DNA of 64,000 nucleotides. Source: Clostridia bacterium (lineage in GTDB: Bacteria; Bacillota; Clostridia; Christensenellales; CAG-138). Positions within the stretch are counted from its first letter, which is position 1. Every line of letters starts with the position of its first letter. Location of the stretch: assembly GCA_017547885.1 (NCBI GenBank), contig JAFYOP010000001.1:1500-65499 (forward strand). Direction: 5' to 3'. A program made the position numbers and the translations under genes. Below the pieces are notes generated by a model. It worked only from the letters and a program-made list of their open reading frames with translations. It ran no database searches and was not told the origin of the DNA. Positions 1,775 through 63,713 of the stretch are shown piece after piece.

Positions 1775-1825
1775 TCAGTTTCGAAAAAGTCCTGTTGGAA
1801 CTTTTTCGAGATAACAGCTTTTGCC

Positions 1826-1960
1826 TAAAACGCTAAAGCGTTTCCGGGCGGCAAAATCTGCAAAGTACGAAAACCTGACGGTTTTCATCCGTTTTGCCGT
1901 ACACGCCACCAAAGCCGGAATGAAAATCAAGGGGGTGCGACCCCTTGATAATCCCCGGAG
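1826..1960. repeat. Family B structured intergenic repeat, copy B1
   Basis: Alignable with 21893..22034. It has a closing helix TTCCGGG/CCCCGGA, hairpin GAAAACC-TGAC-GGTTTTC, helix CATCCG..CCGGAATG and hairpin ATCAAGGGG-loop-CCCCTTGAT. Confidence 0.7.
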
Positions 1961-2027
1961 AATAACTTTTTTAGACAGGCTTGTTATATTGTTTACCATA
2001 CAGTGAATTTTTTCAGGAGGTTTACCT

Positions 2028-3400: not shown

Positions 3401-3598
3401 GTGAAAGTAAGGCTCAATGAGGACACCGAAGTTGTCCGCATGGTAAAGGAGGGCCTTGAGGCCCGTGGGGGCTACTGCCCCTGTGTGCGTGAGATCAGCG
3501 AGGACACAAAGTGCATGTGCAAGGAGTTCAGGGAGCAGATAGCGGATCCCGACTTTGAGGGCTACTGCCACTGCATGCTGTACTATAAGGAAAAGTAA
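3401..3598 (+). CDS. Small Cys-rich protein, ferredoxin-thioredoxin reductase catalytic-subunit-like
   Basis: 65-aa ORF with a GTG start 7 nt after GGAGG. Cysteine pattern CPC..CMC..CHC resembles FTR catalytic-domain proteins. Confidence 0.65.
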   Translation: MKVRLNEDTEVVRMVKEGLEARGGYCPCVREISEDTKCMCKEFREQIADPDFEGYCHCMLYYKEK

Positions 3599-3610
3599 AC
3601 AATAAAAGTA

Positions 3611-3645
3611 AAAGGGCTGTGGGAAACCACGGCCCTTTGATATTT
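3611..3645 (+). terminator. Intrinsic terminator after the FTR-like gene
   Basis: Stem GGGCTGTGG / CCACGGCCC with a GAAA loop, followed by TTTGATATTT. Confidence 0.7.
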
Positions 3646-3889
3646 ATCTAATCCCACCCACCACAGAACTAAAGTAATAGTGAATAGTGAAGGAGTATTT
3701 ATTATCTATACCCACCCGCCACCCTTTAAATGTATCTTCGCCTAATGGCGAAGACGGGGGAGGACGGATAAAGCTCCATTAACCGCGAATAACTCCATGG
3801 GGTGTAACCTATCCTGCCGATAGCACGTTTCGCTTCTCCCGCAGGGAGAAGCTTCCTTAAAGGGTGGAGGGTGGGTATAGATAATAAAT
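3641..3889. repeat. Family A quasi-palindromic element, copy A1 (extended variant)
   Basis: The order is a solo arm TATTTATCTAATCCCACCCACCACA, then a GTAATAGTGAATAGTGAAGGAGTATT module, then the full element 3697..3889. The element's arms are ATTTATTATCTATACCCACCCGCCACCCTTTAA and TTAAAGGGTGGAGGGTGGGTATAGATAATAAAT. Subterminal hairpins are TCTTCGCC-TAAT-GGCGAAGA and GCTTCTCCC-GCA-GGGAGAAGC. Confidence 0.85.
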
Positions 3890-4007: not shown

Positions 4008-4051
4008 GGCAGCACACCTAAGCATGCTTACACTTGAATCAATTTAAAACT

Positions 4052-4122
4052 TTCGCTTTTCTTTCTCTTTTTGCTTCTTTTTCTTCTTTATTTTCGCGTC
4101 CGAAAAGAAAGAGAAAAAGAAG
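4052..4122 (+). repeat. Family C Py-Py-Pu triplex-type module, copy C1
   Basis: TTCGCTTTTCTTTCTCTTTTTGCTTCTTTTTCTTCTTTATTTTCGCGTCCGAAAAGAAAGAGAAAAAGAAG. Same tracts 1 and 3 as 35724..35794 and the reverse complement of 63642..63713. It starts 11 nt beyond the stop of minus-strand gene 4133..4783. Confidence 0.9.
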
Positions 4123-4877: not shown

Positions 4878-5588
4878 ATGAAAAACAAAAAGACCCTTTC
4901 GGCCCTGCTTACCGCCATAAGCTGCGTGGCATGGCTGGTGATAATAATCGCCCTGATGTTTACTTTCCTTAGGGGGGAGCTGAAAAACGAGAGCCGCTAT
5001 CTGGCCTTTTATGAGGAATACCGCATAGAGGAGCGTACAGGCCTTACCCCCAAGGGCGCCACCGATGCCCTTATGGCGCTGGTGGATTATATGGAAGGGG
5101 ACAGAGACAGCATACAGCTTACTGTTGAAGAATACGGCGTACCTGTTGAGATGTACTCTGAGGATGAGATACACCACATGGTGGATGTGTATTATCTCTA
5201 TCAGGGCTTTGCAAAGTTTCAGCCCGCGGGCATCGCATGCGCCGTGATAATACTGCTCATCGGCTGGTACGCAAAGAAAAACGCACTGCCCAATATACCC
5301 TTGCGGAGCTTTTTCCGGGGGCTGGGGCTGTTTGTGCTTATAGGGGGCGGCCTTGCCCTGTGGGCGATGCTGGATTTCACCTCCTTCTGGACGGCATTCC
5401 ACCTTGCCTTCTTCAGCAACGACCTGTGGCTGATGGACCCCAGAGTATCCCGCATGATACGCATATGCCCGGAGCACCTCTTCAGCGGCATTGCGGGCCG
5501 CATGGCCGCAAAGACCGCCGCAATGCTGGGCGTGATATGCATTGCCCTCATTACTTACAGCAGACATACCCGCAAAAAGGAAGCGTGA
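4878..5588 (+). CDS. TIGR01906/DUF1461 family integral membrane protein (Lit-like)
   Basis: 236-aa ORF after GAAAGGAAG. N-terminal TM segment, a middle domain with the EDEIHHMVDV motif, and C-terminal TM segments, as in TIGR01906 proteins. Confidence 0.7.
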   Translation: MKNKKTLSALLTAISCVAWLVIIIALMFTFLRGELKNESRYLAFYEEYRIEERTGLTPKGATDALMALVDYMEGDRDSIQLTVEEYGVPVEMYSEDEIHHMVDVYYLYQGFAKFQPAGIACAVIILLIGWYAKKNALPNIPLRSFFRGLGLFVLIGGGLALWAMLDFTSFWTAFHLAFFSNDLWLMDPRVSRMIRICPEHLFSGIAGRMAAKTAAMLGVICIALITYSRHTRKKEA

Positions 5589-5593
5589 GAACC

Positions 5594-6664
5594 ATGAGCG
5601 AAATGTATTCAGCATCCGCGGCAAAAGGACTTGCCGCATATCAGCATAATAAGGACGCACTGCTCCTTGCCATAGAAAGCTCCTGTGACGAAACGGCGGC
5701 CTCTGTGCTGCGGGGGGACAGGGAAGTGCTCAGCATGAGCGTATATACCCAGATACCCCTCCATCGTAAGTTCGGCGGGGTGGTGCCGGAGCTTGCCTCA
5801 CGCAGCCACGTGGAAAAGATAGGGGAAGTGGTAAACTATGCCCTTGAGTCCGCAAAGGTCACCATAGACGACATATCCGCCATAGCCGTCACCTGCGGCC
5901 CCGGCCTTGTGGGGGCGCTGCTGGTGGGGGTAAGCTATGCAAAGGGCCTTGCCTTTGCCAAAGGGCTGCCCCTCATCGGCGTAAACCACCTTGCGGGGCA
6001 TATCGCTGCCAACTACCTTACATATCCCGACCTTAAGCCTCCCTTTATGTGCCTTGTGGCCTCCGGCGGGCACAGCCATATTATCAAGGTGGAGGATTAT
6101 CATAAATTCACTCTCCTTGGCCGCACCCGTGACGACGCGGCAGGTGAGGCCTTTGACAAGGTTGCAAGAGCACTGGGTCTGCCATACCCCGGCGGGCCGG
6201 AGCTTGAGAAGCTGGCCCGTGAGGGAGACCCAAACAAATACCCCTTCCACTCCGCGCTGAATCAAAGCATAGAGGAAAGCGACTTCAGCTTTTCCGGCAT
6301 AAAGACAGCGGTGGTAAACCTGCTGCACAATGCAGAGCAAAAGGGCGAAAGCCTGGATCCTGCGGACATTGCCGCGTCCTTCCAGCGGGCGGTGTGCGAT
6401 GCCCTTACAATGAAATCCGTACATGCCGCAAAGGCCCACGGCATGGACACCCTTGCCCTTGCGGGGGGAGTATCCGCCAACAAGGCCCTCCGGGGCGCAC
6501 TTGAGGCAGAGTGCAGGCGTCAGGGGGTGCGGTTCTGCTGTCCGGATTTCCGCTTCTGCACCGACAACGCCGCAATGATAGCCTGCGCCGGCCACTACGG
6601 CCTTATGGCGGGGCAGCTCAGCGGCCTTGAGCTGAATGCCGTGCCGAATCTGGCGCTGTGTTAG
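5594..6664 (+). CDS. tsaD: tRNA N6-adenosine threonylcarbamoyltransferase
   Basis: Track ORF 5237..6664, start set at ATG 5594. Motifs ESSCDETAASV, GVNHLAGH, SGGHSHI and FSFSGIKTAV are classic TsaD/Kae1. Confidence 0.95.
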   Translation: MSEMYSASAAKGLAAYQHNKDALLLAIESSCDETAASVLRGDREVLSMSVYTQIPLHRKFGGVVPELASRSHVEKIGEVVNYALESAKVTIDDISAIAVTCGPGLVGALLVGVSYAKGLAFAKGLPLIGVNHLAGHIAANYLTYPDLKPPFMCLVASGGHSHIIKVEDYHKFTLLGRTRDDAAGEAFDKVARALGLPYPGGPELEKLAREGDPNKYPFHSALNQSIEESDFSFSGIKTAVVNLLHNAEQKGESLDPADIAASFQRAVCDALTMKSVHAAKAHGMDTLALAGGVSANKALRGALEAECRRQGVRFCCPDFRFCTDNAAMIACAGHYGLMAGQLSGLELNAVPNLALC

Positions 6665-6672
6665 GGGGGAGT

Positions 6673-6730
6673 GTTCTTTTCTTTAAAAGAAAAGAACCAA
6701 AAGAAGCGTACTTTCCTTAAAGGAAAGTAC
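6673..6730 (-). repeat. Family D twin Py/Pu hairpin module, copy D1 (Py-Py-Pu sense on the minus strand)
   Basis: GTTCTTTTCTTTAAAAGAAAAGAAC-CAAAAGAAGC-GTACTTTCCTTAAAGGAAAGTAC, 8 nt after the tsaD stop. Same module as the reverse complement of 62243..62314. Confidence 0.9.
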
Positions 6731-10534: not shown

Positions 10535-10879
10535 GGGCGTTGCCCTTTCGCGAAAAACCATTTGGGTTTTCCGCGAGTATCCGCTGGGTTGGGGGCGGCC
10601 AAATGCTGCGCAAGTGGCCGAATACAATCCCTTTGGGGGATGCCGATTCCCTCTCGCGGCTGCGGCCGCTCCCGGGCGGGAATCGGGCAGCGGTATCCAT
10701 CCCTTGCGGGATGGTTCCGTTTTCGCCGCACATGTCGCCGAAAACGGATTGAAAGCTTTGGGCATGCTGCCGAATGCGGATTGAAAGCCTCGAAGGTCTA
10801 ATATCCTTCCGATAGCACGCCCTGTTTTTCCGCAAGGAAAAACATACCTTAAAAGGGTGGCGGGCGGGAATAGATAAAT
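10535..10879. repeat. Composite repeat A2: family B-like hairpin series fused to a family A right end
   Basis: The B-like part has TTCCCTCTCGCGG..CTCCCGGGCGGGAA, CCATCCC-TTGC-GGGATGG and CCGTTTTCGCCG-CACATGT-CGCCGAAAACGG. It ends with CCGATAGCACG, TGTTTTTCC-GCAA-GGAAAAACA and TTAAAAGGGTGGCGGGCGGGAATAGATAA. No left arm is present. Confidence 0.75.
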
Positions 10880-10964
10880 ATACCCAAACCTAACTTGCCT
10901 CAGTTGACAAAATTGCACCTGCGATTATGCGGGAGCAAAAATAAAGAACGGAAGTACACACCGT

Positions 10965-19665: not shown

Positions 19666-19729
19666 GTTTATATTGCTAACCCAAAGGGCCGTAATCGGCC
19701 CTTTATTCAAAATATTTGGAGGATACACC

Positions 19730-21535: not shown

Positions 21536-21850
21536 ATGCAGTACGATGTTGACATGAATGCCATGAAGGCCTATATAATCGAAAAGTTCAAGGCAGAGGG
21601 AGATTTTGATTTCCTCAAGGAAGGCCTGCTGGAAGAAATGGTGAGCGAGATGCTGTCCCTTGACCAGGCATACATGGCAAAGCTTTCCGAAGATGACGAA
21701 TACGACGATGACGACGTATACGATATCCTCTTTTCCGCCATGCAGAAGAAATATCCCGATTACAAGATGTTTGCAATGCGCCTTGCAGAGGACTATCTGG
21801 ACTTTGCCGAGGAGTATCTGGTAAGCGTGGACGCAATAGAGTGGGATTGA
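21536..21850 (+). CDS. Small acidic hypothetical protein
   Basis: 104-aa ORF after AAAAGGAGAAAAGC, probably co-transcribed with pepF. No family recognised. Confidence 0.5.
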   Translation: MQYDVDMNAMKAYIIEKFKAEGDFDFLKEGLLEEMVSEMLSLDQAYMAKLSEDDEYDDDDVYDILFSAMQKKYPDYKMFAMRLAEDYLDFAEEYLVSVDAIEWD

Positions 21851-21860
21851 TAAGGATGTC

Positions 21861-21886
21861 AAAAAAGCGGCGAATGCCGCTTTTTT
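21861..21886 (+). terminator. Intrinsic terminator
   Basis: AAAAAAGCGGC-GAAT-GCCGCTTTTTT. Confidence 0.85.
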
Positions 21887-21892
21887 GAGTTT

Positions 21893-22034
21893 TGCAGGAT
21901 TTCCCTCTCGCCTTGCGGCTCCCGGGCGGGAAAGCCTGTAAAGAAAGAAAACCTTATGGTTTTCATCCGTTCTGACGCACATGTCGTCAGAGCCGGAATG
22001 AAAATCAAGGGGTGCGCCCCTTGATGATCCCGGA
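21893..22034. repeat. Family B structured intergenic repeat, copy B2
   Basis: Has TTTCCCTCTCGCC..CTCCCGGGCGGGAAA, then GAAAACC-TTAT-GGTTTTC, CATCCGTTCTGACG-CACATGT-CGTCAGAGCCGGAATG and ATCAAGGGG-TGCG-CCCCTTGAT, and closes with TCCCGGA. Confidence 0.75.
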
Positions 22035-22047
22035 ATTTATGATGAAA

Positions 22048-22079
22048 TAAAGCCCCGAAGCTGCTGCTTCGGGGCTTTT
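22048..22079 (-). terminator. Intrinsic terminator of minus-strand gene 22093..22545
   Basis: AAAGCCCCGAAGC-loop-GCTTCGGGGCTTT. On the minus strand it is followed by TTTATTTC. Confidence 0.7.
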
Positions 22080-22545: not shown

Positions 22546-22590
22546 GTGGGCCTCCTTTCTGCGGGTGCCTGTGGGGCAAGAGAAATGGCG

Positions 22591-22771
22591 TATTTATCTA
22601 TACCCACCCACCACCCTTTTAATGTGCTTTTTCCCTTACGGGAAAAAGGGCAGGGTTGTTCGCAAGCCCGTTCTGATATGCAATGATTTAGATGCGTGTC
22701 ATTGACAGCACCCTCGGCTTTTCCGCAGGAAAAGCTACATTAAAAGGGTGGCGGGCGGGATTAGATAATTA
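22591..22771. repeat. Family A quasi-palindromic element, copy A3
   Basis: Arms are TATTTATCTATACCCACCCACCACCCTTTTAATG and CATTAAAAGGGTGGCGGGCGGGATTAGATAATTA. Subterminal hairpins are CTTTTTCCC-TTAC-GGGAAAAAG and GCTTTTCC-GCA-GGAAAAGC. Confidence 0.9.
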
Positions 22772-22830
22772 TCCGTAAAACAACATCGATGACGTATACC
22801 ATGTACACGTCAGCGATTTATTTATGTGTG

Positions 22831-24595: not shown

Positions 24596-24632
24596 CGTTA
24601 TTCTTTGGTTCTTTTCTTTTAAAGAAAAGAAC
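24596..24632 (+). repeat. Family D module, single-hairpin variant D2
   Basis: ACGTTATTCTTTG-GTTCTTTTCTTTTAAAGAAAAGAAC, 6 nt beyond the stop of minus-strand gene 24639..25973. It equals D3 with the hairpin-b segment deleted. Confidence 0.85.
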
Positions 24633-24638
24633 GTATAA

Positions 24639-31716: not shown

Positions 31717-31820
31717 GGGAATACCTTACCCACACAGGCAACACCGGCCTTTGGACAGAGCATCCCTTTTTCCCGCAGGGAAAAAGTACATTGAAGGGCG
31801 GTGGGAGGGAATAGATAATA
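31717..31820. repeat. Family A element, truncated copy A4 (right half plus a degenerate left arm)
   Basis: GGACAGAGCATCC, then CTTTTTCCC-GCA-GGGAAAAAG, then TACATTGAAGGGCGGTGGGAGGGAATAGATAATAAG. The left side has only a TACCTTACCCACACAGG remnant. Confidence 0.7.
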
Positions 31821-31830
31821 AGCCGCAAAT

Positions 31831-34664: not shown

Positions 34665-34916
34665 AAATTTATCTATACTCTGCCCGTAAATGAAGCTGCG
34701 GGTAATAATGAATGGTGAGAGAGTATTGATTATCTATTCCCACCCACCACCCTTTTAAGGTATCTTCGCCTGCCGGCGAAGACGGGACAGGTATGATAAA
34801 CCTCCGGCCTTTGCTAATAACCCAAAGGATAATGTACCGCATTATCGATGGAATGCTCGGCTTTTCCGTAGGAAAAGCTACATTAAAAGGGTGGCGGGTG
34901 GGATTAGATAATAATT
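34665..34916. repeat. Family A quasi-palindromic element, copy A5 (extended variant)
   Basis: The order is a solo arm start AATTTATCTATAC, then a GGTAATAATGAATGGTGAGAGAGTATT module, then the element. Its arms are GATTATCTATTCCCACCCACCACCCTTTTAAGG and CATTAAAAGGGTGGCGGGTGGGATTAGATAATAAT. Hairpins are TCTTCGCC-TGCC-GGCGAAGA and GCTTTTCC-GTA-GGAAAAGC. Confidence 0.85.
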
Positions 34917-35679: not shown

Positions 35680-35723
35680 AGATAGCACGATCAGGCTTGC
35701 TTATTATATTTATTTGTTTAACG

Positions 35724-35794
35724 TTCGCTTTTCTTTCTCTTTTTGCTTCTTTTTCTGCTTTCTTTTCGCGTCCGAAAAGAAAGAGAAAAAGAAG
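35724..35794 (+). repeat. Family C Py-Py-Pu triplex-type module, copy C2
   Basis: TTCGCTTTTCTTTCTCTTTTTGCTTCTTTTTCTGCTTTCTTTTCGCGTCCGAAAAGAAAGAGAAAAAGAAG, 11 nt beyond the stop of minus-strand gene 35806..36750. Confidence 0.9.
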
Positions 35795-36753: not shown

Positions 36754-37902
36754 CTATACTCCAAACAGCTCCATAAGGGCGGATTCATTCAGCTTTGCGC
36801 CGATTACGCACAGCCTGCCGGTAACGCCTGCGCTGCCTTCGCGAACGTTTATCTCGCCGGGTACAAAGTCAAAGTGTATCCAGGCATTTTCGCCCTTCAG
36901 TATGCCCTTTGCCCTGAGTACCGCGCCGTACTTTTCCTCGTCCTCAAGGGCGGCAAGGGCAGCGGCGATACCTTCCGCAGAGAAGGCCTTGGCAGTTTCA
37001 ACGCCCCAGCTGGTGAATACTTCGTCAGCGTGATGATGGTGATGATGTCCGCACTCGCACTCGTGGTCATGCTCGTGATGATGGCCGCATTCGCACTCAT
37101 GGTCATGCTCGTGATGATGGCCGCATTCGCACTCGTGGTCATGCTCGTGATGATGGCCGCATTCGCACTCATGGTCGTGTTCGTGATGGCCGCACTCGCA
37201 CTCGTGGTCATGCTCGTGATGATGTCCGCACTCGCACTCGTGCTCGTGATGGTGGTGGTGATGATGCTCGCTTTCTGCCTTCAGGTGTGCAAGCTCCTCA
37301 TCAAGGGTGTCGCGGCGCTCCATGGCGGTGAGTATCTGTGCGCCGGTCAGCTCATCCCAGGGGGTAGTGATGAGGGTGGCATCGGCGTTGTGCTGACGGA
37401 TAAGCTCAACGGTGGCGGTGAGCTTGTCCTCGGATATGCCTGCGGTGCGGGAGAGGACTATGGAATTGGCGTGCTCTATCTGGTCGTTGAAGAATTCACC
37501 AAAGTTCTTCATGTACATCCTGCACTTGTTGGCGTCAACGATGGCGGTAAAGCTGTTGAGCTGCAGCTCCTCTGCTCCCACGTCCTGTACGGCGCGGATA
37601 ACGTCGCTGAGCTTGCCTACGCCGGAGGGCTCTATCAGTATACGGTCGGGGGAGTACTGCTCCAGCACCTTCTTGAGGGCCTCGCCAAAATCGCCCACCA
37701 GGCTGCAGCAGATGCAGCCGGAGTTCATTTCGGTAACCTCAATTCCGGCTTCCTCAAGGAAACCGCCGTCAATGCCTATTTCACCGAATTCGTTTTCTAT
37801 AAGTACCAGCTTTTCCCCGCCAAATGCCTCGGGGATGAGCTTCTTGATGAGAGTAGTCTTGCCTGCGCCCAGGAAGCCGGAAAAAATATCTACCTTTGTC
37901 AT
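36754..37902 (-). CDS. CobW/COG0523 family GTP-dependent metallochaperone with a long His/Cys repeat insert
   Basis: Track ORF 36754..38055, start set at ATG 37902 (MTKVDIFSGFLGAGKTT); ATG 37914 is an alternative. Has the CICCS motif (CxCC), the ILIEPSGVG switch and a CobW C-terminal domain. The insert is (HDHECECGHHHE)n. Confidence 0.85.
   Translation of the reverse strand: MTKVDIFSGFLGAGKTTLIKKLIPEAFGGEKLVLIENEFGEIGIDGGFLEEAGIEVTEMNSGCICCSLVGDFGEALKKVLEQYSPDRILIEPSGVGKLSDVIRAVQDVGAEELQLNSFTAIVDANKCRMYMKNFGEFFNDQIEHANSIVLSRTAGISEDKLTATVELIRQHNADATLITTPWDELTGAQILTAMERRDTLDEELAHLKAESEHHHHHHHEHECECGHHHEHDHECECGHHEHDHECECGHHHEHDHECECGHHHEHDHECECGHHHEHDHECECGHHHHHHADEVFTSWGVETAKAFSAEGIAAALAALEDEEKYGAVLRAKGILKGENAWIHFDFVPGEINVREGSAGVTGRLCVIGAKLNESALMELFGV
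37030..37268 (-). repeat. Coding tandem repeat, 36-bp unit x about 5.5, inside the COG0523 gene
   Basis: Units GCCGCATTCGCACTC(A/G)TGGTCATGCTCGTGATGATG begin at 37048, 37084, 37120, 37156 (33 bp) and 37189. They encode HHHEHDHECECG repeats flanked by His runs. Confidence 0.9.
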
Positions 37903-45473: not shown

Positions 45474-45564
45474 GGAGAGATGGCTGAGTTGGTCGAAGGC
45501 GCACGACTGGAAATCGTGTAGTGCAGGAATGTACTCAAGGGTTCGAATCCCTTTCTCTCCGCCA
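45474..45564 (+). tRNA. tRNA-Ser (anticodon GGA), class II with a long variable arm, CCA encoded
   Basis: GGAGAGA acceptor pairs with TCTCTCC. The anticodon loop is CTGGAAA. The T-arm is AAGGGTTCGAATCCCTT, and the 3' end is GCCA. A possible promoter TTGCTT-17-TATTAT lies at 45387..45415. Confidence 0.9.
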
Positions 45565-60083: not shown

Positions 60084-60203
60084 CAAACAAAAGGGCAACC
60101 CGATTCACATACTCAAATGAGAATCAGCTTGCCCAGGCGGTCGGCTTATTGCGTACGGTTCCCTTGTGGTAAGCCACTTCCGCCAGTAGCCGTACGAGTA
60201 GTA
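60084..60203 (-). promoter_or_regulatory. ZTP (pfl motif) riboswitch with a terminator expression platform, upstream of purE
   Basis: The minus strand reads CGUACGG-CUACUGGCGGAAGUGGCUUACCACAAGGGAA-CCGUACG-CAAUAAG-CCGACCGCCUGGGCA. This contains the conserved ACUGGCGGA, GUGG/CCAC and CCGACCGCCUGGGCA pseudoknot blocks. The GGGCA overlaps the 5' arm of terminator GGGCAAGCUGAUUC..GAAUCGGGUUGCCC-UUUUGUUUG. Confidence 0.9.
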
Positions 60204-61704: not shown

Positions 61705-61967
61705 TGGGTAACCTCCTGTGAATGAATAATGTATAATTTATCTCCCCGAGCATGCATCGGGATACGATGCAGTCCGACAAAATTACGGACAAATCTTCAT
61801 TATACTACCACGGCAAGGGGGGATTCGCAACAATAAATTGAAGCTTTTTTATGGCATCAGCCCCTTAATTTACGCATGAATGACAGTACAAAATCCGATG
61901 GAAAAAATGGAATGGGAAGGGAGGGCAAACCTGTTGAAATAATAGAAAAAGACGGGCGGCAAAGGAG

Positions 61968-62153
61968 TAATTATCTATCCCCACCCGTCACCCTTTTAAT
62001 GTATATTCGCCTTACGGAGAAGAAAAAGGAGTATAAATTATATGTAAACCTGAAAAGCATGCACTGACATTATCCGGTGTCAGCGTAAGCTTATCCTTTT
62101 TTCCCGTAAGGGAAAAAGTACATTGAAGGGTGGAGGGAGGGAATAGATAATTA
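61968..62153. repeat. Family A quasi-palindromic element, copy A6
   Basis: Arms are TAATTATCTATCCCCACCCGTCACCCTTTTAATG and CATTGAAGGGTGGAGGGAGGGAATAGATAATTA. The right subterminal hairpin is CTTTTTTCCC-GTAA-GGGAAAAAG. Confidence 0.85.
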
Positions 62154-62179
62154 AAAAGCTCACTTTTTGCCAAAACCAC

Positions 62180-62242: not shown

Positions 62243-62314
62243 TACGCTATTCTTTGGTACTTTCTTTTAAAGAAAGTACGCTTCTTTTGGTTCTTTTCTT
62301 TTAAAGAAAAGAAC
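62243..62314 (+). repeat. Family D twin Py/Pu hairpin module, copy D3 (Py-Py-Pu sense on the plus strand)
   Basis: TACGCTATTCTTTG-GTACTTTCTTTTAAAGAAAGTAC-GCTTCTTTTG-GTTCTTTTCTTTTAAAGAAAAGAAC, ending 8 nt from the serS stop codon. Confidence 0.9.
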
Positions 62315-62322
62315 ATACAAAA

Positions 62323-63591: not shown

Positions 63592-63641
63592 TATTGTTTT
63601 CCTCCTGATAGAGTGTGAAGTTCGATTTTTTGTTTTATTCT

Positions 63642-63713
63642 CTTCTTTTTCTCTTTCTTTTCGGACGCGAAAAGAAATGAGAAAAAGAAGCAAAAAGAGA
63701 AAGAAAAGCGAAA
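63642..63713 (-). repeat. Family C Py-Py-Pu triplex-type module, copy C3 (sense on the minus strand)
   Basis: The reverse complement reads TTCGCTTTTCTTTCTCTTTTTGCTTCTTTTTCTCATTTCTTTTCGCGTCCGAAAAGAAAGAGAAAAAGAAG. It lies between the stop of 63745.. and the serS start. Confidence 0.9.

Follow-up and report, generated by a model that had tools for sequence, protein, structure and literature searches.

We examined a 64,000-nt stretch of DNA (hereafter the window) from a Clostridia bacterium (GTDB lineage Christensenellales, CAG-138; GenBank assembly GCA_017547885.1, contig JAFYOP010000001.1, positions 1,500 to 65,499 of the forward strand). The window contains three copies, B1, B2 and B3, of a structured repeat that we call family B. 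B1 starts 2 nt past the stop codon of a YitT-family gene. The first hairpin of B2, the copy considered most closely here, starts 9 nt past the stop codon of the gene at 21536-21850, and a bidirectional terminator of the host lies directly 3′ of this copy, outside the element (Table 1). Several relatives of these copies in other Clostridia are flanked by duplicated terminator hairpins, and family B is interpreted below as a mobile element.

Family B copies and the anatomy of the unit

We scanned the window with a covariance model (R1) built from 22 relatives, with filters off and every position scored. B2 scored 152.9 bits (over 21885-22041), B1 151.6 bits and B3, which was outside the seed alignment, 60.4 bits; the next-best match reached 14 bits. 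A gapped pattern of shared unpaired motifs (CCGGGCGGNAA..TCCGTT..CGGAWTGAAA) had three matches in the window, at B1-B3, with none expected in shuffled sequence. B1, B2 and B3 are the only family B copies in the window, and all three lie on the + strand where a preliminary description of this DNA had placed them. That description gave the element a length of ~115-140 nt. The real unit is ~200 nt, and all three copies reach further upstream.

The unit was defined by aligning the flanks of relatives from one genome scan and one metagenome scan. It runs from a left end (CAGNSTGTCRAARAAG) through the helices H0, P1, P2, P3 and P4, with a linker between H0 and P1, to AATCCCC(GG) and a right end (CTTTTTYGACAGNCT) that is an inverted repeat of the left end. 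The imperfect terminal inverted repeats span ~15 nt (5′-CAGNSTGTCRAARAA ... TTYTTYGACAGNCT-3′) and have 9-13 matching bases in 8 copies with intact ends; copies with intact ends are 199-207 nt long. The 5′ strand of H0 is the left end of the element, and the short linker after H0 closes with an invariant GAG. P1, an 11-bp helix around a small variable hairpin and a CCGGGC motif, had been overlooked. The hairpin 1, helix 2 and hairpin 3 of the preliminary description correspond to P2, P3 and P4 and are present in B2 as described. All five helices form in the minimum-free-energy (MFE) fold of B2 taken with its upstream bases (21855-22040; z = -8.2 with RNA and -9.4 with DNA parameters), and a CCGGG/CCCGG helix, previously proposed to close a three-way junction, is absent from both the RNA and the DNA MFE fold of full B2.

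H0 of B2 resembles a terminator, its GC stem leading into a T run. H0 starts ~2-15 nt past the upstream stop codon in each window copy, with no other terminator between. Because these hairpins are terminator-like, close to the stop codon and not preceded by another terminator, they probably now terminate the upstream genes.

B3 is degenerate and rearranged. About 60 nt of added sequence follow its H0-like hairpin, and where P4 and the right end would be, the 3′ half of helix 2 is partly repeated instead (10727-10754 and 10759-10786; repeat family D12). The earlier description has this third copy keep the architecture, but B3 has neither hairpin 3 nor the 3′ CCCGG. The reported stem swaps from B2 to B3 are correct (GAAAACC/GGTTTTC to CCATCCC/GGGATGG, and CCGTTCTGACG.. 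to CCGTTTTCGCCG..). The CACATGT loop, reported as conserved, is identical in B2 and B3 but is TACACGC in B1, and so varies even within the window.

We also observed elaborated copies elsewhere. At L006 (4545-4730, - strand), four tandem left-end modules (CGCTT-TCAAAAAGACGG..CCGTCTTTTTGA-GTTTACG) with differing hairpin loops precede one core. In some lineages the loops carry structured inserts, ~60 nt long in P1, 48 nt in P3 and 25-30 nt in P4 (the last in L002, L013, L014 and L016). Insert-bearing copies include L024:3130-3382, L027:1207-1414, L031:5800-6001, L032:5702-5908, L002:5812-5991, L013, L014 and L016, and some of the inserts vary among same-locus copies from different samples.

Integration at terminator hairpins

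Direct repeats of 18-31 bp flank the element at 8 independent sites (L002, L008, L010, L011, L015, the L018 group, L023:6213 and L039:8334). Local alignments of the two flanks scored 18-28, against a maximum of 12 for mismatched flanks. Each duplication is a complete, locus-specific, GC-rich hairpin, and all 8 are hairpins with T runs after them. The duplicated hairpins occupy fixed positions relative to the element: the upstream copy abuts the CAG end, and the downstream copy abuts the right end, with the T run of the original terminator still attached. Duplication length tracks hairpin length, with no fixed stagger. A target duplication that equals a whole hairpin is unusual.

A strain-level comparison provides a filled and an empty site. 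The CorC-family protein encoded at locus L065 shares 98% identity with the protein beside the L018 copy. The empty site in L065 is a 57-nt intergenic region with a single hairpin (AGGAACGGCAATGCCGTTCCT); at the filled L018 site that hairpin occurs twice, with a 199-nt element in between. Between a Usp-family gene and PepF, L060 carries a degenerate copy right after the terminator hairpin, and the window, L061 and L059 have the hairpin only. Taken together, these sequence comparisons indicate that family B integrates at intrinsic-terminator hairpins, after which the complete hairpin flanks the element on either side. The ends of the element, its mobility and the duplication of terminator hairpins had all been missed in the preliminary description.

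The unoccupied hairpin between the Usp-family gene and PepF in the window (AAAGGGCCGTAATCGGCCCTTT) lies at 19683-19704. L062-L064 were considered as candidate empty sites for L018 and set aside, as synteny is lost there.

Covariation in the four-helix core

The preliminary description had proposed a covariance model and an Rfam search as checks. The R1 model gave 76 hits, representing 46 distinct copies from Clostridia genomes and gut or digester metagenomes. We counted pairs in a model-based alignment of these copies (A5), which is fitted to the structure, and in a second, structure-blind alignment of 22 copies made with MAFFT. Alignments with slid pairing partners and 500 shuffles served as controls.

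In the model-based alignment 96.0% of pair cells are paired, and both-side changes occur in 27 of 39 pairs (6-10 in the slid controls). Further pair types number 51, compared with 13-24 in the slid controls, and none of the 500 shuffles equals the real alignment in these counts, with the caveat that these are counts of sequences and not of evolutionary events, and that related sequences can beat shuffles without structure. The MAFFT alignment agrees, with 92.8% of cells paired and both-side changes in 14 of 44 pairs (3-4 in the slid controls).

Covariation extends over every helix of the unit. H0 has both-side changes in 7 of its 8 predicted pairs (columns 28-35 with 49-56). P1 has them in 8 of 11 pairs in the model-based alignment, where 96% of its cells are paired, and in 5 of 11 in the MAFFT alignment. 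All seven P2 pairs show a both-side change somewhere in the family, and covariation is found in 6 of 12 P3 pairs and 6 of 9 P4 pairs. Up to 4-5 pair types occur at single positions; at pair 136-146, AU, UA, GC, CG and UG are all found. Divergent copies retrieved only by the model (L039:8334, L008 and B3) have whole stems replaced with pairing kept. The retrieval pattern fixed the motifs CCGGGCGG, TCCGTT and CGGAWTGAAA, so that their invariance among pattern hits is by construction; in model-only copies (L039:8334, L059, L023:3512 and L060:2770) these motifs vary.

Covariation is absent from the CCGGG/CCCGG closing helix: its two strands hardly vary, and two of its five pairs are broken in 9-12 of the 22 MAFFT-aligned copies. 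We counted this pairing both as a closing helix and as a pseudoknot and rejected it, and with it the proposed three-way junction, as unsupported. The closing helix is probably not real, and P1 encloses instead; the 3′ CCCGG, if paired at all, would form a pseudoknot with the P1 loop. A kissing interaction through the palindrome in the P3 loop was likewise discarded: ACATGT occurs in a subset of copies only, the consensus of this loop across the family is YRCRYGY, and one lineage tolerates a 48-nt insertion in it.

Maintained pairing implies a single-stranded state, either RNA or single-stranded DNA (ssDNA), and the counts indicate that the P1-P4 core is under selection for pairing in such a state. 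The earlier proposal of a structure kept by selection, as opposed to a repeat simply in decay, is supported for the stems by the covariation in the 46 distinct copies and by an orthologue of B2 (below). Wobble pairs give no clear strand: of 63 G.U, counted against 20 A.C, 43 trace to a single conserved T.G, and without that position the counts are 20 and 20. Our best guess is that the element needs the core in cis, as an RNA or ssDNA structure that the host may later have co-opted.

Orthologues of the B2 site

We reached loci orthologous to the B2 site through the neighbouring PepF gene. In L061 (PepF 97% identical), B2 is present at the same site with one substitution. In L059 (PepF 90% identical), the site holds a copy with 74% nucleotide identity to B2; third codon positions of two neighbouring genes are 70% and 79% identical between the window and L059. 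The L059 copy scores 143 bits with R1, and four of its pair changes, in P1, P2 and P4, are fully compensatory. It keeps every helix despite neutral-level divergence. The 5′ half of this copy resembles the B1 type and is joined to a P3 of the B2 type, and gene conversion between copies may contribute to its compensatory changes. L060 was rejected as a clean empty B2 site, as the site holds unrelated or decayed sequence.

Table 1. Coordinates of the family B copies in the window, their helices and the adjoining host terminator
Feature	Position	Strand	Description
B2	21855-22035	+	left end through 3′ CCCGGAA
H0 of B2	21859-21888	+	5′ hairpin TCAAAAAAGCGGC-GAAT-GCCGCTTTTTTGA; 5′ strand is the left terminal inverted repeat
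P1 of B2	21895-21938	+	CAGGATTTCCC (21895-21905) pairs with GGGAAAGCCTG (21928-21938)
Small hairpin inside P1 of B2	21910-21919	+	
CCGGGC motif inside P1 of B2	21922-21927	+	
P2 of B2	21947-21964	+	GAAAACC-TTAT-GGTTTTC
P3 of B2	21966-21997	+	bulged C at 21993; conserved T.G pair; loop CACATGT at 21978-21984
P4 of B2	22004-22025	+	ATCAAGGGG-TGCG-CCCCTTGAT
3′ CCCGG of B2	22029-22033	+	previously proposed partner of CCGGG at 21922-21926
Host bidirectional terminator	22049-22079		AAA-GCCCCGAAGC-TGCT-GCTTCGGGGC-TTTT; kept in L061 and L059
B1	1776-1981	+	full-length, 206 nt; ends match family termini
Left inverted repeat of B1	1776-1790	+	CAGTTTCGAAAAAGT
Right inverted repeat of B1	1964-1981	+	AACTTTTTTAGACAGGCT
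H0 of B1	1781-1809	+	
P1 of B1	1815-1825 with 1850-1860	+	
P2 of B1	1869-1886	+	
P3 of B1	1888-1919	+	loop TACACGC
P4 of B1	1926-1949	+	
B3	10546-10793	+	degenerate, rearranged
H0-like hairpin of B3	10549-10575	+	
P1 of B3	10642-10651 with 10678-10688	+	
P2 of B3	10697-10714	+	
P3 of B3	10716-10748	+	loop CACATGT

Distribution, coding content and neighbouring genes

We identified 17 loci in 9 Clostridia assemblies in the genome scan, 8 of them in one metagenome-assembled genome (MAG), ADurb.Bin182. The metagenome scan yielded 39 real loci from human, camel and sheep gut, fermenters and digesters. Host MAGs are labelled Christensenella, Oscillospiraceae, Clostridiales bacterium, Clostridia bacterium, Firmicutes and Bacillota. 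One copy recurs unchanged in 20 human-gut samples. A human-gut locus, L023, has three copies within 3.6 kb (2786-2941, 3512-3669 and 6213-6368); the middle copy opposes both flanking genes, and its H0 sequence is unrelated to that of the first copy.

Family B is non-coding. There is no conserved open reading frame (ORF), and no ORF is common to more than 18 of 45 copies. A 22-codon ORF that starts from the P2 loop of B2 was rejected as a small peptide, as no frame is conserved across copies. The neighbours are unrelated housekeeping genes, and the element is therefore not a gene-specific regulator. At sites between same-direction genes, 7 copies are co-oriented with transcription and 1 is opposite, a modest bias.

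No internal promoter was found in B2 or B3. In many copies, including those of L008, L010, L019, L035 and L046, the right inverted repeat holds TTGACA (CTTTTTTGACAG), an outward -35-like box. In B1, TAGACA-16 nt-TACCAT (at 1964-1999) sits 30 nt 5′ of an M20 peptidase gene; judged by their sequence, these boxes could form a hybrid promoter.

Database searches matched family B to no described RNA or element. An Rfam scan of the window at the gathering threshold and sensitive Rfam scans of B2, B1 and L011 (an ADurb copy) gave no family match to the element; the sensitive scans returned sub-threshold matches only, driven by terminators. Full-text literature searches gave no published description of family B. 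BLAST searches of plasmid and phage collections and pattern scans of viral contigs gave no match besides a 26-nt chance hit and L088, one further MITE copy (miniature inverted-repeat transposable element) at the end of a contig. No long repeats common to the ADurb loci, or within the window, were found. Other places in the loci that resembled the inverted-repeat motif were considered as ends of an autonomous partner and dismissed as chance matches inside coding sequence.

Comparison with known systems

Several known systems share features with family B. IS1272 and TnSha1, members of the IS1182 family in staphylococci, insert into terminator hairpins (PMC4923244; PMC5678879). Like those of family B, their targets are picked by hairpin structure with no sequence consensus, and many are terminators downstream of genes (PMC4923244; PMC5678879). 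IS1272L has a tandem duplication of its left end, comparable to the four left-end modules in L006 (PMC5678879). IS1272 differs in being autonomous and ~1.9 kb long and in removing all or part of the hairpin with no duplication, whereas family B is 200 bp long and non-coding and duplicates the hairpin. The likeness of the IS1182 family to family B is one of hairpin targeting, as described for the family. The direct-repeat range given for IS1182 elements in ISfinder is 0-60 bp, which is a lead and not a test.

Small structured repeats provide a second set of comparisons. The passages on bcr1 of the Bacillus cereus group in PMC3184786 (citing Okstad 2004 and Klevan 2007) describe flanking direct repeats, strain-variable locations and a multi-stem fold with compensatory changes. 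As portrayed in those passages, bcr1 is, like family B, a MITE-like interspersed repeat of Firmicutes (~155-200 bp). Compared by description, the direct repeats of bcr1 are fixed at 5 bp and its stem-loops are two and independent of each other, whereas family B has 18-31 bp repeats and five helices and is terminator-specific. SPRITE, BOX and RUP of Streptococcus pneumoniae, Correia and ERIC are also small structured interspersed repeats near gene ends, and SPRITE has a Rho-independent-terminator-like motif comparable to H0 (PMC3184786). These repeats have short or no target duplications, and none is reported to duplicate a host terminator; family B adds a four-helix core conserved across several Clostridia orders.

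Two other classes were considered and rejected. REP, BIME and REPIN consist of 20-40 nt palindromic units that bear GTAG/CGTC tags and go with a RAYT transposase, whereas family B is a 200-nt element with five helices, inverted repeats and a duplication; no search aimed at RAYT was made. Group IIC introns integrate just past intrinsic-terminator hairpins and are oriented with transcription. These ribozymes have domains I-VI and, as a rule, an ORF for a reverse transcriptase, and they leave the target unduplicated. Family B has no match to the Rfam models Intron_gpII or group-II-D1D4, and it has inverted repeats and a duplication. A structure-defined duplication of hairpin size, terminator specificity and a five-helix fold found across Clostridia orders set family B apart from the MITE-like repeats and from IS1272/TnSha1.

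Other repeats and RNAs in the window

We also identified a second MITE-like family of 189-197 nt with inverted ends of ~35 nt (ATAATTATCTAATCCCGCCCGCCACCCTTTTAATGT), at 3692-3888, 22584-22772, 34720-34915 and 61961-62154 (repeat families D2 and D4). Solo ends of this family lie at 3634-3675, 10822-10881 and 31763-31822, one of them 29 nt after B3. A long purine/pyrimidine hairpin repeat (CTTCTTTTTCTCTTTCTTTTCG...CGAAAAGAAAGAGAAAAAGAAG) occurs at 4048-4122, 35720-35794 and 63616-63690; it is also present just after the B2 orthologue in L059 (~5390-5450), and is not at that site in the window. A short intergenic hairpin repeat (TTTGGTTCTTTTCTTTTAAAGAAAAGAAC) is found at 6669-6703, 24604-24638 and 62286-62320 (repeat families D6 and D8).

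A tandem array at 37007-37296 has a period of 36 with one 33-nt interval and gives overlapping 77-nt matches from seven positions (repeat family D1). Its sequence suggests that it encodes a His/Cys/Glu-rich repeat on the minus strand. The sole Rfam matches in the window are a ZMP/ZTP riboswitch at 60124-60200 (- strand, 53 bits) and a long-arm tRNA at 45474-45561 (+ strand).

A probable mobile element with a folded core

We consider it likely that family B is a non-autonomous, MITE-like mobile DNA element of ~200 bp that integrates at terminator hairpins. It has the features of a MITE in being small, non-coding and multi-copy, with terminal inverted repeats and a target duplication borne out by a filled and an empty site. 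A transposase supplied in trans would recognise the shape of the DNA, an extruded hairpin or cruciform, and not its sequence. The ends of the element would be joined at the two feet of the stem, and gap repair would then copy the stem-loop to both sides. The upstream hairpin copy would lose its T tract, and the element's own H0 would take its position there. Insertion need not break upstream termination, because H0 looks like a terminator in most lineages.

Several points weigh against this interpretation. The DDE/cruciform step is one that we infer, and a symmetric cruciform mechanism would not predict the orientation bias. IS1272, the known hairpin-targeting element, deletes the hairpin rather than duplicating it (PMC4923244; PMC5678879). 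No autonomous partner with matching ends was found in the 470 kb of loci or in plasmids, phages and viral contigs. Ordinary MITEs, to our knowledge, keep no covarying internal core across bacterial orders. Finally, no flanking duplication is present at any of the three window copies, and inverted repeats are found at both ends of B1, at the left end only of B2, from which the right one is absent, and clearly at neither end of B3. B1-B3 are old, fixed insertions directly after stop codons, with no duplication left, B2 without its right end and B3 rearranged.

It is also conceivable, though rather unlikely, that the P1-P4 core is a functional host RNA, a module of 3′ untranslated regions or a small RNA (sRNA) that stabilises or insulates transcripts and is carried by, or domesticated from, a mobile element. 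The fold would then be selected at the level of the host, with mobility as its delivery route only. B2 and its L059 orthologue fit this idea, being immobile (no right inverted repeat, no duplication) and retaining their helices at 74% identity, as do the copy identical in 20 human-gut samples, the position directly after stop codons in mostly the same orientation as the upstream gene, and the single conserved T.G wobble on the + strand. However, in most lineages a good terminator, H0, precedes the core, so that little read-through is expected, and B2 showed no promoter-like site. Apart from one position, G.U and A.C are equally numerous, the B1-like 5′ half of the L059 copy means that gene conversion could mimic compensation, and the neighbouring genes have no common function. 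A second alternative dispenses with selection altogether: a few diverged subfamilies, born with perfect hairpins, would have been mixed by gene conversion or recombination in a process of concerted evolution. Chimeric copies do exist, as in L059 and the rearranged B3, the counts are of sequences, so that kinship alone can beat shuffles, and A5 is fitted to the structure. We nevertheless regard this as very unlikely, given the 4-5 pair types at some positions, the excess of further pair types over slid controls that preserve relatedness, the agreement of the structure-blind MAFFT alignment and the divergent model-only copies that swap whole stems and stay paired. The birth of subfamilies with perfect hairpins would itself need selection for pairing.

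Selected pairing implies a single-stranded stage, and the mobility route could itself be single-stranded instead of DDE cut-and-paste, as in a SINE-like retroelement or an ssDNA handled by HUH enzymes in the manner of IS200/IS605, with the core as the recognition signal. The 7 to 1 orientation bias with transcription at informative sites and the variable duplication length are in keeping with such a route, and group IIC introns also target terminator hairpins, which they read in ssDNA. The duplication is symmetric and exactly the palindrome, however, in keeping with a cut at each foot of a cruciform, and IS200/IS605 and group II introns make no target duplication. We found no 5′-truncated series or A-tails as left by target-primed reverse transcription, the Rfam intron and ribozyme models gave nothing, and terminal inverted repeats are present. 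We judge this route highly improbable.

Implications

Family B would be a natural case of shape-directed integration in which the stem-loop is copied to both sides, previously drawn only as a hypothetical alternative pathway for IS1272 (Figure 13, pathway b, of PMC5678879). The strongly covarying core raises the question of why a MITE needs a folded core. One answer, which we hold to be unlikely, is that P1-P4 are the active mobility part, a folded RNA or ssDNA that recruits, or is processed by, an enzyme reading terminator hairpins by shape. If true, family B would represent a new class of structure-guided, terminator-seeking mobile element and not a passive MITE of a known IS family.

Family B is common in uncultured gut Clostridia and accounts for a class of recurring intergenic structures that annotation might otherwise take for novel sRNAs or riboswitches. 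Each insertion rewires the 3′ end of a gene by adding a second terminator hairpin, a new 5′ hairpin and often an outward TTGACA box. Copies may thus alter termination, mRNA stability and the expression of downstream genes.

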